Shown piece after piece: positions 18,522 through 38,324 of a DNA stretch of 58,477 nt. Both the position numbers and the translations under genes were made by a program. A model generated the notes under the pieces. That model had not been told where the DNA came from, ran no database searches, and saw only the letters and a program-made list of their open reading frames with translations. The stretch comes from Candidatus Kaiserbacteria bacterium RIFCSPHIGHO2_01_FULL_55_37 (GTDB lineage Bacteria; Patescibacteriota; Minisyncoccia; Phycocordibacterales; UBA2100). Each line of letters begins with the position of its first letter. Within the stretch, counting starts at the first letter, position 1. The DNA is taken from NCBI GenBank assembly GCA_001781175.1, contig MFKY01000048.1:1-58477 (forward strand), written 5' to 3'.

Positions 18522-20459
18522 ATGGAACCACTGCCACCATCCAACGATTCTGGACACGCCGGAGGCGCAACTCCCGGACCGCGCCGCACTCAGAGCCCCG
18601 CACGCCCGCACCACGCCCGCCCGGGGAGCCGCCCGCCATCCCGCCCCGCAGGAAGGCCGGGGACACGGACAGGCCGGCCGGCCAGACATTTCGGTCGTCC
18701 CAATCATCCGCCGCGCCGCGGAAAAACCCGCGTCGAGCACCAGGCGCCCTCCCAACGTAAACAAGCGGGCGCTCCCATTCCACCCCCCTCACCCGACACC
18801 GTGCGCATTATTCCTTTGGGCGGCGTCGAAGAGATAGGACGCAACATGACGGCCGTGGAATTCGGCGACGATATTTTCATCCTCGACTGCGGATTCGCCT
18901 TCTCCGAAGGAGAAACCCCGGGCATCGATTACATCCTGCCGAACACCGGCTACCTCGAGGAGCGCCGCGACAAGATCCGCGGTCTGCTCATCGGACACGG
19001 TCACCTCGACCACATCGGCGGCATCCCCTACATCATCGACCGCATCGGCAACCCGACCATCTACACGCGCAAACTTACGGGCATGATGATAAAGAAGCGC
19101 CAGGAAGAATTCACGCAGACATCGCCCGTGAACATCCGCGAAGTAGAGAGGGACGAAGTCATCAAGCTCGGCGCCGCGACGATACGATTTTTCGGCGTCA
19201 CGCACACAGTGCCTGATTCGATGGGCATCATCATCGAGACCCCGTGGGGCGACGTGGTGTATACCGGAGACATCAAGTTGAACCACCTCGACGGCGAGCC
19301 GTCGGCCGAGGAGAAGCGCGAATTCGGTATATTCAAGAACCGCAAAGTACTCGCCCTGCTCATGGACAGCACGAACGTCTGGCAGCCGGGATTCTCTATT
19401 CCTGAATCAACTGTCTACACCACTCTCGAAAAAATAATCAAAGATTCAAAAGGCCGGCTTGTTATCGCGATGTTCGCTTCCCACTTGGAGCGGCTCATCC
19501 GCGTCGTGCATTTTGCCGAGGAGTACGGCAAAAAAATCGTCATCGACGGACGCAGTATGCGCACCAACATCGAGATAGCGCGGGAAATAGGTATCATCAA
19601 ATACAAAGATGACACCGTCGTCGCCGTCGAGAACATGAATCAATATCCGCCGGAACGGCTCATCATCCTTGCGACAGGCGCTCAGGGAGACGAGTTCGCA
19701 TCGCTCGCCCGCATCGGCAACAAGACGCACAAATACATCCGTCTTCAGCCGACCGATACCGTCGTGCTCTCTTCGTCGGTCATTCCCGGCAACGAGCGCG
19801 CAGTGCAAAAGCTCAAAGACAACCTCTCGCGTCAGGGAGCACATATCATCACCTACCACGCCTCCGATGTGCATGCATCCGGCCACGGCAACCGCGAAGA
19901 AGCGGCATGGATACACAGCCAAATAAGGCCGAAATTCTTCATCCCCGTTCACGGGTATCACTACATGTTGCGTGTGCACGCCGACCTCGCCGTCGAAATG
20001 GGTGTCAAATCGGAGAACATTTGTATCCCCGACAACAGCTCCATCATTGAGATAAAAAATGCCGAGAAGATATTGAAGCATGCGCTCAAAGCACCTGCAG
20101 AACTGCGCGTCGTTGAAGGCACGACCGTCTCGGAACTCTCCGATGTCCTGATGCGTGACAGAAAAGCGCTCGGTCAGGAAGGCTTCTGTGTCGTCGTCGC
20201 GACGGTAGACCGTCGCACGGGCAAGCTCCACAAATCCCCCGACATCATCTCGCGCGGGTTCGTCTATCTGCGCGACAACAAAGACCTCATGGACCAGACG
20301 CGTCTCATCATCCGCAAATCAGTAGAGACGTCGCTGCGCAACCCGCGAGCCGCAGACCTCGACGCCGCAAGAGAAGACCTAGCCGACGCGGTTTCCCAAT
20401 TCCTGTTACAACGTACAATGAAAAGACCTATTGTTATCCCCGTAATAGTCAGTATCTAA
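18522..20459 (+). CDS. rnj: Ribonuclease J (beta-CASP metallo-beta-lactamase) with Arg/Pro-rich N-terminal extension
   Basis: IGHGHLDHIGGIPY, a beta-CASP region and HASGHG. About 90 aa of R/P-rich leader precede the conserved VRIIPLGG start. Confidence 0.9.
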   Translation: MEPLPPSNDSGHAGGATPGPRRTQSPARPHHARPGSRPPSRPAGRPGTRTGRPARHFGRPNHPPRRGKTRVEHQAPSQRKQAGAPIPPPSPDTVRIIPLGGVEEIGRNMTAVEFGDDIFILDCGFAFSEGETPGIDYILPNTGYLEERRDKIRGLLIGHGHLDHIGGIPYIIDRIGNPTIYTRKLTGMMIKKRQEEFTQTSPVNIREVERDEVIKLGAATIRFFGVTHTVPDSMGIIIETPWGDVVYTGDIKLNHLDGEPSAEEKREFGIFKNRKVLALLMDSTNVWQPGFSIPESTVYTTLEKIIKDSKGRLVIAMFASHLERLIRVVHFAEEYGKKIVIDGRSMRTNIEIAREIGIIKYKDDTVVAVENMNQYPPERLIILATGAQGDEFASLARIGNKTHKYIRLQPTDTVVLSSSVIPGNERAVQKLKDNLSRQGAHIITYHASDVHASGHGNREEAAWIHSQIRPKFFIPVHGYHYMLRVHADLAVEMGVKSENICIPDNSSIIEIKNAEKILKHALKAPAELRVVEGTTVSELSDVLMRDRKALGQEGFCVVVATVDRRTGKLHKSPDIISRGFVYLRDNKDLMDQTRLIIRKSVETSLRNPRAADLDAAREDLADAVSQFLLQRTMKRPIVIPVIVSI

Positions 20460-20472
20460 GCGCATCGACTTG

Positions 20473-20502
20473 CCCCGTTAGAAGCGAAGCTTTCTAATGG
20501 GG
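20473..20502 (+). repeat. Short-form CCCCG...CGGGG hairpin (family A)
   Basis: CCCCGTTAGAAGC-gaa-GCTTTCTAATGGGG forms about 13 bp with one G-U pair and one bulge. It starts 13 nt after the rnj stop. Confidence 0.75.
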
Positions 20503-20543
20503 TGAGGCGCCCTATCGTGATTCCGGTGATCGTCAGCGTTTGA
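20502..20543 (+). other. Ghost (recoded) copy of the RNase J C-terminal 13 codons plus stop
   Basis: GTG AGG CGC CCT ATC GTG ATT CCG GTG ATC GTC AGC GTT TGA = VRRPIVIPVIVSV*, in frame with rnj, which ends MKRPIVIPVIVSI*. Confidence 0.8.
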
Positions 20544-31172: not shown

Positions 31173-31261
31173 CGCGACAGTATTGCATCCCGCCCTTTCT
31201 GGGTAAAGGGTGGGATTGCACGAACGAAATGACCTTGCTAGAATGCTCGCACACACCCCAT

Positions 31262-31396
31262 ACGTATCAAGAGTGCGACGAGAGTTCCGGCTTTATGACT
31301 CGCCAGCAACCTGCCGAAGGTAAGGTGCTCCATCCGGCCCCTAGCGGGAAGATGCTTTTGTCGAAAGAATCTCCCTATAAGGGAGATATTGTTTAT
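31262..31396 (+). promoter_or_regulatory. SAM-I (S-box) riboswitch with terminator, upstream of metK
   Basis: UAUCAAGAG...GAGAG..GGC..UGA..C.CAGCAACC...AGGUGCUC..CC...AGAUG follows the S-box core order. Terminator: ATCTCCCT-ata-AGGGAGAT (31369-31387) plus a T-rich tail. An extended -10 box TGCTAGAAT sits at 31236-31244. Confidence 0.75.
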
Positions 31397-34417: not shown

Positions 34418-36244
34418 TTATTCGACGGTAACTGACTTCGCGAGATTGCGGGGGCGGTCCACATTGAGGCCTTTTTCTTTGGCGAAGTAATAGGCGAACA
34501 GCTGGAGCGGTACGACATTCAGTATCGGCGATAGCATTTCAAGCGTCTCAGGTACGTAGATGACGTCATCGGCAAGTTTTGCTATCTCTTTGTCCCCTTC
34601 TGTCGCGACCGCAATGACCGGCCCTTTGCGCGCTTTTATCTCGTGGATATTGGATATCATTTTTTCATACATGCTGTCCTTCGGCGCGATAGCCATCGTC
34701 GGGAAATTCTCGTCTATCATCGCGATGGGGCCATGCTTCATCTCACCCGCGCCGCAACCTTCGGCGTGGATATAGGAAATTTCCTTGAGCTTGATGGCCC
34801 CCTCATACGCGATGGGATAATTGTATTTGCGACCGATGTACAGAAAATCGCGCGCGTGCGCATATTTCTTGGCCAGCTTCTGTATCTCCTCTTTTGTATC
34901 CAGTATCGCCTGGATTTTTTTCGGGAGCTCCTTGAGCGCGCGGGCAATTTCCTTGCCTTGCGCGGCTGTCATTCCACGCTGCCGTCCGAGGAATATCGTA
35001 AAGAGCGCGAGCGCAGTAAGTTGCGAGAGAAATGCTTTGGTGGAGGCGACGCTTACTTCCGGCCCCGCATGATTGTAAACGCCGGCATCCGTTTCGCGGG
35101 CAATTGTCGAACCGACGGCGTTCACTATGCCGAGCGTGAGCGCTCCGTGCCGTTTACCCTCGCGGACAGCCTCGAGCGTATCAAGTGTTTCTCCCGACTG
35201 GGAGATGGCCAGAACAGCTGTTCGTTCGTTGACAACAGGTTTCTTGTAGCGAAATTCGGAGCCAATCTCGACCTCCACCGGAATGCGGGCGTGTTCTTCG
35301 AGCATATACTCGCCGACCTGCGCCGCGTAGGATGCTGTCCCGCAGGCAACGATAATGATGCGGTCAATCTTTTCCAGCTGCTTCGCGACGGTTTCCAATC
35401 CACCGAGCTTCGCCAATCCTTTTTCGGGAATGAGCCTCCCGCGCAACGTATTTTCTATCACCTCCGGCCCCTCCATAATTTCCTTCAGCATGAAATGTTC
35501 GTAGCCGCCCTTTTGCGCCGCTTCCGCGCTCCAATCGATGTCGGTGGCGTCACGCTTTACCTTTGTCGAATCAAGCTTGAATATTCTGTGTCCGTCGGGC
35601 GAAATGACGGCGACCTCGCCATCTTCGAGAAAGACAACCTTGCGAGTGTGCGGGAGGATGGGCGTTGGGTCCGATGCGATGAAGTGCTCGCCATCGCCGA
35701 GCCCCAATACGATTGGCGAACCCATGCGCGCGGCGATGATGCGGTCCGGTTCTTTCTTGTATTGCAGCGCGATACCGTACGTCCCGCGCACTTCATTGAG
35801 TGCCGCGAGTGCGGCCTTCTCGAAACTTTTCTCGTGCTTCAAGTGTTCTTCAATCAAGTGCGTGAGCACCTCGGTGTCGGTATCCGAGCTGAATGTGTGC
35901 CCCGCCCTTTCGAGCTTTGCCTTTAATTCTTTAAAATTCTCAATGATGCCGTTGTGTACGACCCATATCTCACCGTCGCAACTCCCGTGCGGGTGGGCAT
36001 TCTTTTCGGTCGGCTCGCCGTGCGTTGCCCAGCGCAAATGAGCGATGCCGCTCTTGCCTGCAAAGTCCTTTGGCATTTTCTTGCGGAGTTCCGCGACCGC
36101 TCCAGGCGAACGTACCGAGCCCGATTCCGGCGTAAATATCCCGGCTGAGTCGTATCCGCGATATTCAAGAGAAAGCAGGCCGTCGAGAAGTACTCCGCCC
36201 GCTTCTTTACCTTTGTTGCCGGTGTATGCAAAAATGCCACACAT
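34418..36244 (-). CDS. glmS: Glutamine--fructose-6-phosphate aminotransferase
   Basis: MCGIFAY start, two SIS domains, and a ...AKSVTVE end. Confidence 0.96.
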   Translation of the reverse strand: MCGIFAYTGNKGKEAGGVLLDGLLSLEYRGYDSAGIFTPESGSVRSPGAVAELRKKMPKDFAGKSGIAHLRWATHGEPTEKNAHPHGSCDGEIWVVHNGIIENFKELKAKLERAGHTFSSDTDTEVLTHLIEEHLKHEKSFEKAALAALNEVRGTYGIALQYKKEPDRIIAARMGSPIVLGLGDGEHFIASDPTPILPHTRKVVFLEDGEVAVISPDGHRIFKLDSTKVKRDATDIDWSAEAAQKGGYEHFMLKEIMEGPEVIENTLRGRLIPEKGLAKLGGLETVAKQLEKIDRIIIVACGTASYAAQVGEYMLEEHARIPVEVEIGSEFRYKKPVVNERTAVLAISQSGETLDTLEAVREGKRHGALTLGIVNAVGSTIARETDAGVYNHAGPEVSVASTKAFLSQLTALALFTIFLGRQRGMTAAQGKEIARALKELPKKIQAILDTKEEIQKLAKKYAHARDFLYIGRKYNYPIAYEGAIKLKEISYIHAEGCGAGEMKHGPIAMIDENFPTMAIAPKDSMYEKMISNIHEIKARKGPVIAVATEGDKEIAKLADDVIYVPETLEMLSPILNVVPLQLFAYYFAKEKGLNVDRPRNLAKSVTVE

Positions 36245-36256
36245 TGAGCCACTGTA

Positions 36257-36382
36257 GCACCCCGTTAGAAATTGCGGAAGTTCGGTATTTTCTGTTACGG
36301 AGATACTTTTTGCAAACGTGATTACAGTTGTAAACTCGACGTGCCGTTCGGAAGCGCAGGCTTCCTATTTCTAACGGGGAGC
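36257..36382 (-). repeat. Long-form family-A element: 16-nt inverted arms (15 of 16 match) around ~94 nt in the glmS leader
   Basis: On the plus strand, GCACCCCGTTAGAAAT (36257-36272) pairs with ATTTCTAACGGGGAGC (36367-36382). The arm sequence is the same as in the rnj hairpin. An inner hairpin reads GGAAGC-ctgc-GCTTCC. Confidence 0.75.
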
Positions 36383-36399
36383 ACGTTTGTTTCAAAAAA

Positions 36400-37389
36400 T
36401 TAACGGAGTAGGATGTCGGCAATATCAGCCCGAAAGATGTTGACGGCAGAGTGTATCGAGGCGGCGTCGGGTGGACGCTTTGGGTACGTACGATTCGAGA
36501 GAACGACGAACGCGACCCCGTGTTCGGGGTCAACGGCGACCGACGTTCCCGTAAAGCCCGTTTTGCCGAAAGCGCCAGTGCCGAAGTGAGAGCCCATAAA
36601 CCACGGTTCAGCTTTCTGCCAGCCCCAATGTTTCCTCGCGCCGCCCATCACTGCCGGAAGCTTGCCTTGGAGTAATGCTTCGAGAAAATTGAGTGTATCG
36701 GGTGCGGTCGAGAATAATCCGGCGTGGCCGACGGCGCGATGCCGGGCAGAGAATACGCGCGCGCTTTCGTCGTGAACGACGCCGCAAACCTCTTGGCCGC
36801 CAACAACTTCAGTCGGGGGAATCCGTGAAATATCCGCGGAAAAAAACGTCGTGTCCTTCATGCCAAGTGACCCGAAGAAATATTTCCGCGCGAGAGCATC
36901 GAGCGTGTCGCCTGTCACCCGTTCGAGAACAACGCCGAGTAAGAATGCCGGAATGTTCGTATACAAATGTTTCCCGGGCGGACCATCAAATCCGCGCTCA
37001 AACACGTGCGAAAGCACCTCATCGGGCGTCTTATCTTTCAGCGTCGAGAGCTGCGGCCCGCGGACGCGATAGGTCAGCAAATTTTCGATGGTCGCGCCAT
37101 AGTCATTCTTCAGCTCCGGCAAATATTTCACTACTTTATCCGCGGGCCGCAATTTCCCCTCTCCCATCAACGTGAGCGCGAGCGATGCCGTGGGGATGGA
37201 CTTGGTTATAGAGGCGAGGTCGTAGACCGTGTCTTCGCAAACCACCGGAGAATCCAACTCATACGTAAAACGCCCGAACGGCGAAATCTCGCGTTCCCCA
37301 CCGGCACGAACAACGCCGATAACGCAGCCGGGAAATACTTTTTCCTGTATTGCACGGAGAGAGCTCTCCGCTATCGTTTCTTGTATCAT
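36400..37389 (-). CDS. Serine hydrolase, beta-lactamase/PBP4*-like family
   Basis: S-x-x-K motif in DLASITKSIP, with class C-like overall length and pattern. Confidence 0.85.
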   Translation of the reverse strand: MIQETIAESSLRAIQEKVFPGCVIGVVRAGGEREISPFGRFTYELDSPVVCEDTVYDLASITKSIPTASLALTLMGEGKLRPADKVVKYLPELKNDYGATIENLLTYRVRGPQLSTLKDKTPDEVLSHVFERGFDGPPGKHLYTNIPAFLLGVVLERVTGDTLDALARKYFFGSLGMKDTTFFSADISRIPPTEVVGGQEVCGVVHDESARVFSARHRAVGHAGLFSTAPDTLNFLEALLQGKLPAVMGGARKHWGWQKAEPWFMGSHFGTGAFGKTGFTGTSVAVDPEHGVAFVVLSNRTYPKRPPDAASIHSAVNIFRADIADILLR

Positions 37390-38227: not shown

Positions 38228-38324
38228 CTACGCGTCCGGGTAGGCATCCTTTATCTCTTTTGCGAGGTATGGATTCCACCCCGCAGTGAAGCAAAGCTTA
38301 CTACGGGGCAGGCATGGCACCCGT
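38228..38324 (-). other. Short-form family-B hairpin plus ghost (recoded) copy of the DHOD-like C-terminal 16 codons
   Basis: Read on the minus strand: TAA, 16 nt, CCCCGTAGTAAGC-ttt-GCTTCACTGCGGGG, then TGG AAT CCA TAC CTC GCA AAA GAG ATA AAG GAT GCC TAC CCG GAC GCG TAG = WNPYLAKEIKDAYPDA*. The ghost stop is 2 nt from the methyltransferase ATG. Confidence 0.8.

Follow-up and report, generated by a model that had tools for sequence, protein, structure and literature searches.

A putative non-autonomous mobile element in the glmS promoter of a Kaiserbacteria genome and its relation to GIY-YIG nuclease elements on host start codons

The repeat and its position upstream of glmS

The window, the whole stretch of 58,477 nucleotides analysed here, is contig C48 of a Kaiserbacteria (CPR) assembly (G000; 862 kb in 58 contigs, 90% complete, GC content 55%). 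Among named glmS loci, those of Candidatus Kaiserbacteria and Paceibacterota MAGs are the closest. A gene for a serine-hydrolase-like protein lies upstream of glmS on the minus strand, and the gap between the two genes reads, in plus-strand order, AGCA / CCCCGTTAGAAAT / 94 nt / ATTTCTAACGGGG / AGCA (Table 1). The two arms are complementary at 13 of 13 positions and enclose exactly 94 nt, in agreement with an initial annotation of this DNA that had noticed arms recurring about 94 nt apart in front of glmS. Its count of 15 complementary positions in 16 is obtained when the flanking 4-mers are included, which add two pairs beyond a T.T mismatch. The inner hairpin described there was also found (GGAAGC-gcag-GCTTCC), and the end of the GGGGTG motif indeed lies 13 nt from the glmS ATG (minus strand, 36244).

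Table 1. Features of the glmS locus and of the related hairpin at rnj (window coordinates)
Feature	Position	Strand	Remarks
Putative non-autonomous (MITE-like) element, 120 bp	36260..36379	+ (own sense; antisense to glmS)	Assigned from arms, flanks and 3'-end matches
Left terminal inverted repeat, CCCCGTTAGAAAT	36260..36272	+	Encodes P-V-R, close to the N-terminus of the nuclease, in intact elements
Right terminal inverted repeat, ATTTCTAACGGGG	36367..36379	+	In intact elements, codes for ..SLTG, then the stop codon
Subterminal stem GGAAGC-GCAG-GCTTCC, followed by TATTTCT	36350..36365	+	Counterpart of the GAAGCGCTTC palindrome
Target-site duplication, copy 1 (AGCA on +, TGCT on -)	36256..36259		Contributes TG and the first T to the extended -10 box of glmS
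Target-site duplication, copy 2 (AGCA on +, TGCT on -)	36380..36383		
glmS extended -10 box, TGcTACAGT	36251..36259	-	6 nt from box end to ATG; leaderless geometry
glmS coding sequence	34418..36244	-	608 aa, MCGIF...
Serine-hydrolase-like gene, upstream of glmS	36400..37389	-	329 aa
Short 30-bp form of the arms, 3' of rnj	20473..20502	+	No target duplication; between two 13-codon rnj tails

Two readings of the paired arms had been put forward, a MITE-like palindromic element and the conserved closing helix of a structured leader RNA. In the second reading, a cis-regulatory glmS 5' leader would hide a ribosome-binding site within the helix and open on binding a metabolite such as GlcN6P. RNA folding is compatible with such a structure: RNAfold closes the arms stably at -46 kcal/mol, although the gain over shuffled sequences is modest (z = -2.1). 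Rfam gave no match at the locus, the glmS ribozyme included, either at the gathering threshold (whole window) or at E<=10 (36100-36550). The element shares with the glmS ribozyme (RF00234) its location upstream of glmS; it differs in not being conserved among glmS orthologues, in lying upstream of the promoter's -10 box and in having no Rfam match. The initial annotation had likewise set the ribozyme aside. The only Rfam match in the window is a SAM riboswitch (RF00162) at 31261-31358, upstream of the metK region, whose 45.3 bits are barely over the gathering score.

The promoter bears directly on the leader reading. An extended -10 box of the type TGnTAnAnT is present upstream of glmS in nine of the 11 genomes inspected; it stands exactly 6 nt from the ATG in the source genome and in G011, G010 and G001, and G005 has a TACTCT box at equal spacing. 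Across the whole genome, TAnnnT ending 5-9 nt before the start was found at 24% of 762 called starts and at 4% of random positions, an approximately 6-fold difference, whereas Shine-Dalgarno-like motifs precede 7.6% of called genes compared to 8.6% of random positions and are thus not enriched; the genome-wide statistics on promoters, Shine-Dalgarno motifs and start codons rest on crude gene calls. The missing enrichment agrees with the loss of the anti-Shine-Dalgarno motif in part of the Parcubacteria (PMC9297842). Judged from sequence, translation in the source organism appears largely leaderless, and the glmS mRNA is probably leaderless as well, because the conserved extended -10 box sits downstream of the element, 6 nt from the ATG. 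With this box between element and start codon, the element would not be part of a glmS leader and probably lies outside the glmS mRNA altogether. Since the genome shows no Shine-Dalgarno enrichment, the proposal that the helix sequesters a ribosome-binding site in GGGGTG is left unsupported. A -10 box or a Shine-Dalgarno site within the gene-proximal arm was also considered by eye, and neither fits.

The two readings were also compared against related genomes. The occupied site reads ...ttaattttttgaaacaaacgTGCT[120 bp]TGCTacagtggctcaATGtgtggc, and the same site is exactly empty in the congeners G010, G111 and G085 (caaacgTGCTacagt). In G010, which has the same gene order and a GlmS that is 81% identical, the empty site reads ...caaacgTGCTacagtggcgcaATG, or in fuller context ...ttaattttccgagccaaacgTGCTacagtggcgcaATGtgtggc. 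The insertion point in the glmS promoter is acgTGCT / ACAGT, so that the duplicated TGCT re-forms the extended -10 box; glmS expression is therefore probably little altered. No element was found upstream of glmS in any of 11 congeners inspected, three of which have the precise empty site, and among 115 congeners searched only G044 carries one there.

The related element at the same place in G044 would favour a leader RNA, as would the co-variation of arm positions 11-13 across copies (at least nine variants). However, such covariation is equally expected of inverted repeats bound by one protein, or of a DNA or RNA hairpin, and is by itself no indication of a leader RNA. The precise empty sites, the absence from the other eight congeners inspected, the antisense orientation, the intervening -10 box, the lack of Shine-Dalgarno enrichment and of an Rfam match, and the presence of the same element at more than 20 unrelated genes all argue against a conserved glmS leader, which we regard as extremely improbable. 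For glmS itself the outcome is deflationary: there is no new riboswitch, and the promoter insertion was probably made harmless by the duplicated TG.

A dispersed family with target duplications and empty sites

The arms belong to a family that is dispersed through the source genome. With up to one mismatch, the arm 11-mer CCCCGTTAGAA occurs five times in the window, compared to 0.89 occurrences expected, and five or more were seen in none of 100 shuffles; the 862-kb genome contains 17 exact occurrences. A genome scan for arm pairs of the pattern [C/T]CCCGTTAGA...TCTAACGGG[G/A] identified 27, spread over 18 contigs, of which 21 are long (59-122 bp) and six short (about 27-32 bp). The modal perfect arm length is 13 nt across 61 detections, palindromic arms being counted on both strands. 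Identical 4-nt flanks are present in 15 of the 21 long copies (binomial P ~4e-32), and flanks shifted outward by 4-16 nt, which served as a control, gave no match among the long copies. The duplicated 4-mers of the long copies, given in one reading direction, are TGAA, TGGA, TGTA, TGAG, TGGG, TGCT and TAAA. None of the six short copies in the source genome has a target duplication.

Further empty sites were sought with a 15-kb query of joined flanks, followed by inspection of the fetched regions. Clean empty sites were recovered for eight more copies (C9:6098, C34:5324 at rpmJ, C34:19783, C34:21262, C36:31260, C45:1614, C56:21850 and C58:9554), supplied by the genomes G011, G059, G103, G046, G010, G068 and G036. 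Presence/absence polymorphism, by which the initial annotation proposed to recognise a mobile element, is thus seen at glmS and at eight additional loci, and its MITE-like reading is borne out by target duplications, empty sites in relatives, some 27 genome copies and intact parents that share the arms. From its sequence features, the element at the glmS locus would be classed as a MITE: it has terminal inverted repeats and a duplication of fixed length, its site is empty in relatives, its family comprises many small copies without an intact gene, and a putative autonomous partner is found in congeners.

Start-codon occupancy and the intact nuclease elements

In at least 13 cases, a long copy directly adjoins a long ORF in such a way that the last base of the element (A or G) and the TG of the duplication form an ATG or GTG start. 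The original A-TGNN survives on their far side, preceded at 3-11 nt by a TGnTAnnnT box. That the start codon was the target is confirmed by the empty sites, as for taaTATGGAgcg in G011 and G059, which corresponds to ...aTGGA[82 bp]TGGAccg in the source genome. ATGAA-like 5-mers are about seven times more common in non-coding sequence than at called starts (1910 versus 260), and yet all 13 clean copies are at starts, so survival of random insertions alone is not a sufficient explanation. Pure survivorship, that is, random insertion at ATGAA-like 5-mers followed by selection, was rejected on these 13 of 13 cases, for which the gene calls are crude.

Two copies lie within genes and supply a new in-frame start. 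In dnaG, the copy (C4:31490-31576) was inserted after codon 3 and provides an ATG within the arm variant ATGTCTAACGGGG, with a TGtTACATT box ahead of it; in a membrane-protein gene, the copy (C55:4669-4769) follows codon 12 and provides a GTG preceded by AGGTGAG. Both N-termini have therefore been replaced. The glmS copy and one on contig C25 are atypical, both being promoter insertions in reverse orientation. The C25 copy lies in the TGCT of an extended -10 box (TGCTACGAT-N6-ATG) and has an orthologous counterpart in G011. These two look like off-target events in the other conserved TG of a leaderless promoter.

The start-codon geometry is also seen in longer, intact elements of related genomes. 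In G077 (locus L150), a gene matching PF01541 forms a 277-bp element with the arms TCCCGTTAGAGAT...ATCTCTAACGGGA and TGAA flanks. The reading frame, 94 codons long, opens at the host ATG (ATG AAT CCC GTT AGA, or MNPVR) and closes at a TGA overlapping the rebuilt ATG of the host, which consists of the last base of the element and TG (junction ..GGGA / TGA). The protein of 94 residues is a single GIY-YIG domain (Pfam PF01541, E = 6e-19), and among solved structures the UPF0213 proteins BH0048 and EF2693 are closest to it. In these intact elements, the arms are the coding ends (PVR... and ...SLTG*) and thus serve both as inverted repeats and as coding sequence.

A search with the G077 protein recovered intact copies in 15 congeners, with 72-100% identity across the 94 residues, including G011, the closest relative of the source genome. 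All intact copies in those congeners are 277 bp long and sit on a host start codon with a duplication of TGAA, TGAT or TGAG, and their frame is open from the host start to the ATGA. Element variants of 282-283 bp carry GAAGTCAG arms. Class-wide, matches at E<=1e-18 were found in 109 of 301 genomes and 92 of 221 genera, and a 277/280-bp architecture likewise occurs at nine loci from other families of the class. With about one-third of the sampled Paceibacteria genomes carrying it, the family will distort automated calls of start codons and N-termini.

No intact arm-flanked nuclease gene was found in the 90%-complete source assembly. The sole GIY-YIG gene of this genome (C54:17342-17587, 81 aa) was considered as an autonomous copy and rejected; it is UPF0213-like and has no arms nearby. 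This unrelated type also accounts for most of the 30 best PF01541 loci in the genus. Such UPF0213/YhbQ-like genes (~80-95 aa, MYFVYIL...) reach nine copies per genome of less than 1 Mb in the genus; they have their own start codons and none of these arms, and may form a separate class of selfish genes.

The glmS copy can be aligned with these parents at its ends. Its 3' 21 nt are 95% identical to the 3' end of the intact 277-bp elements (blastn), and the 3' end including the GGAAGC..GCTTCC stem is the sequence that codes for ..LKRFLSLTG*, the 3' coding end of the nuclease gene, where the GAAGCGCTTC palindrome lies. This correspondence sets the sense of the element as the plus strand of the window, antisense to glmS. 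The interiors of short copies were considered as deleted nuclease genes, a derivation that was rejected: blastn shares just 13-21 terminal nucleotides with the intact elements, and the interiors are unrelated. Matches of 94-97% identity to the 3' 31 nt of the glmS copy were found in 23 of the 115 congeners, and a single genome can hold as many as ten matching pieces. Elsewhere, six of 11 loci of this subfamily that were examined are placed cleanly on start codons, in the sense direction and with TGAA or TGAG duplications.

The copy in G044 (C72:1989-2108, L195) is 78% identical, interior included, and lies upstream of a glmS gene in the same position and orientation, ahead of that genome's own box TGATAGAGT; its GlmS is 81% identical. 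Arms and subterminal stems are the same in both copies, and the interior and the flanks have diverged. G011 and G010, with GlmS identities of 91% and 81%, have no glmS element; in relatives that are closer or no more distant, the site is empty or rearranged. A single old insertion, later lost in some lineages but with its ends conserved, would hint at use by the host, and conservation of the arms in situ in G044 could reflect a host-level function; alternatively, the two copies could be separate hits at a hot spot.

Host use could take the form of a mobile insertion that has since been co-opted, its hairpin ending or stabilising the hydrolase transcript and insulating glmS from read-through, or its end replacing the -35/UP region of glmS. 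The element begins 20 nt past the hydrolase stop codon (16 nt separate that codon from the distal copy of the target duplication), and the GGAAGC..GCTTCC stem with its TATTTCT tail scores as terminator-like, but it does so on the plus strand and faces the wrong way for the hydrolase transcript. On the minus strand, no U-tract follows the large hairpin. The identical arms and subterminal stems in the two genomes fit a retained function, yet independent insertions at a hot spot or conversion between copies could produce them as well, and congeners with the same gene order manage without the element. Co-option is therefore regarded as unlikely.

Based on these comparisons, the 120 bp upstream of glmS are very probably a non-autonomous copy of a mobile element that entered, in reverse orientation, the TG of the -10 box and duplicated TGCT, with the 277-bp GIY-YIG start-codon elements as parents. 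Arms, duplications, empty sites, copy number, start-codon geometry and parents together establish the architecture and population genetics of the family.

A simple model of its life cycle would be as follows. The autonomous 277-bp form sits on a host start codon, and its nuclease would be read from the host ATG (ATG-AA / T CCC GTT AGA, or M-N-P-V-R) and expressed from the host's leaderless promoter and AUG. The 94-aa GIY-YIG nuclease would mobilise short copies in trans, and targeting may read some feature of transcription or translation start sites. In the Kaiserbacteria/Paceibacteria family, one such derivative would have entered the TG of the glmS extended -10 box, duplicating the 4-bp TGCT. 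At occupied start codons, the host promoter and the 5'-terminal AUG would drive a relay frame, from which ribosomes may pass to the rebuilt start through ATGA coupling. A frame open from the old ATG to an arm TAA or to ATGA is present in six of 13 short copies, and the relay frame was accordingly rejected as a feature of all of them; as these copies are mutually related, the count is weak evidence for the relay.

Taken further, the family may represent an undescribed class of element, a reading to which we give about an even chance. It would be a 277-bp transposon whose sole product is a 94-aa GIY-YIG nuclease, whose terminal inverted repeats are its coding ends and which, having no promoter or start codon of its own, targets leaderless start codons (occasionally -10 boxes), hijacks initiation and returns the ribosomes via ATGA; the glmS copy would be a by-product in a promoter TG. 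If this is correct, GIY-YIG would be a novel transposase chemistry whose targeting is directed to promoters or start sites, and nucleases of this type would join the enzymes that move elements with terminal inverted repeats. A literature search found no description of such an element, which is no proof of absence. Among the self-contained mobile gene architectures known to us, this appears to be the smallest, and it illustrates how selfish DNA can occupy essential start codons where genomes are below 1 Mb and mRNAs are leaderless. There could also be practical interest in a small nuclease that is site-specific and has defined hairpin arms.

Short hairpins, related systems and other repeats

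The hairpin 3' of rnj (CCCCGTTAGAAGC-GAA-GCTTTCTAATGGGG) is built from the same arm sequence as the glmS locus, as had been reported, and short hairpins of the form CCCGTTAGA[AG]GC-NNN-GC[CT]TCTAACGGG are present in 24 of 61 congeners. The initial annotation had taken the two as short and long forms of one element. The shared arms support this; the short ones, however, have no target duplication and sit inside ORFs or at gene ends. The short forms thus have the arms in common with the long form without being simply reduced versions of it. Two 29-bp short copies (C7:16327-16355 and C55:3142-3170) lie in frame within ORFs of 536 and 433 codons, with the predicted translations DPVRGVASNG and RPIRKKNSNG (pattern [DR]P[VI]R..SNG).

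The region around the rnj hairpin (20418-20543) contains two in-frame versions of the last 13 codons, MKRPIVIPVIVSI* and, past the hairpin, (V)RRPIVIPVIVSV* (asterisk, stop). They differ mainly at synonymous sites, and the downstream version is nearer in nucleotides to the single tail of G094. The 13 nt that precede the hairpin (gcgcatcgacttg) resemble the left flank of the copy at C45:1614 (gcgcagcacgacttg).

Simple palindromes of 27-30 bp without target duplications are REP-like, and the genome contains a Y1_Tnp gene (C14:19791-20486; PF01797, E = 5e-8, 231-codon open frame), which raises the alternative that the arms are a REP/BIME-like palindrome moved by a Y1 (RAYT/IS200-like) transposase and not by a GIY-YIG nuclease. 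There are no arms within 1.5 kb of the Y1 gene, however, and neither repeat family flanks it. Y1 transposition gives no target duplication, whereas 15 of the 21 long copies have one, and the arms of intact elements form the two coding ends of a GIY-YIG gene. Mobilisation by the Y1 enzyme is therefore considered very unlikely, and the GIY-YIG elements are retained as the probable parents.

Several known systems resemble the family in part. The Correia/NEMIS elements of Neisseria are bacterial MITEs with terminal inverted repeats that duplicate TA and derive from DDE-type transposons. Like them, the glmS family is short, non-coding and multi-copy, has terminal inverted repeats and a duplication, is polymorphic for presence and absence, is often adjacent to genes and can touch promoters. 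Unlike them, it makes a 4-bp duplication (TGNN), its copies occupy and rebuild start codons, and a 94-aa GIY-YIG nuclease lacking its own start codon is all that its parents encode. Rickettsia palindromic elements, of 100-150 bp, are tolerated within protein-coding genes, as are the two in-frame short copies described above; we know of no nuclease parent for them, they have no sequence relation to the present family, and the long copies here favour start codons. In phages, free-standing genes for GIY-YIG homing endonucleases bring a start codon of their own and invade the same allele through repair, and to our knowledge they have neither inverted repeats nor target duplications. The resemblance lies in a small selfish nuclease gene at or between host genes whose function is retained; unlike homing genes, the glmS family occupies many unrelated genes in one genome.

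The nearest functional analogue of the parent nuclease is the Ssn family. These single-domain GIY-YIG nucleases act on single-stranded DNA, comprise about 94 aa, are flanked by SRM/NTS hairpin repeats and are associated with hundreds of short palindromic repeats; the authors of that study point out the IS-like repeat-gene-repeat layout (Chenal et al. 2025, PMC11893778). The parent protein is likewise a single-domain GIY-YIG protein of about 94 aa tied to short palindromic repeats. In contrast to Ssn, the hairpin here forms between the two arms and not within each of them, the arms encode protein, copies occupy start codons and have a 4-bp target duplication, and UPF0213 proteins are the best solved relatives. 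The glmS-family arms were also considered as SRM repeats and rejected because the motif does not fit: the consensus HGTCWY...RNCYNB is matched neither by the glmS copy nor by the hairpins at rnj and on C7, and its three matches in the whole genome all lie outside the elements.

Two further repeats were noticed. A variant hairpin of the same style, CCCCGCAGTGAAGC-AAA-GCTTACTACGGGG, lies behind a gene end at 38283-38313 of the window. A second motif, CCCCGTGAGAT(A), occurs at 6150-6166 of the window and at approximately 15 sites in the source genome (for instance C54:13425, C54:13489, C58:13525 and C23:34344). Its CCCC end abuts TATA, so that the other strand reads TATCTCACGGGG-TATAcT-N7-ATG, immediately upstream of -10-like boxes; this motif may represent a further family of elements or a site associated with promoters.
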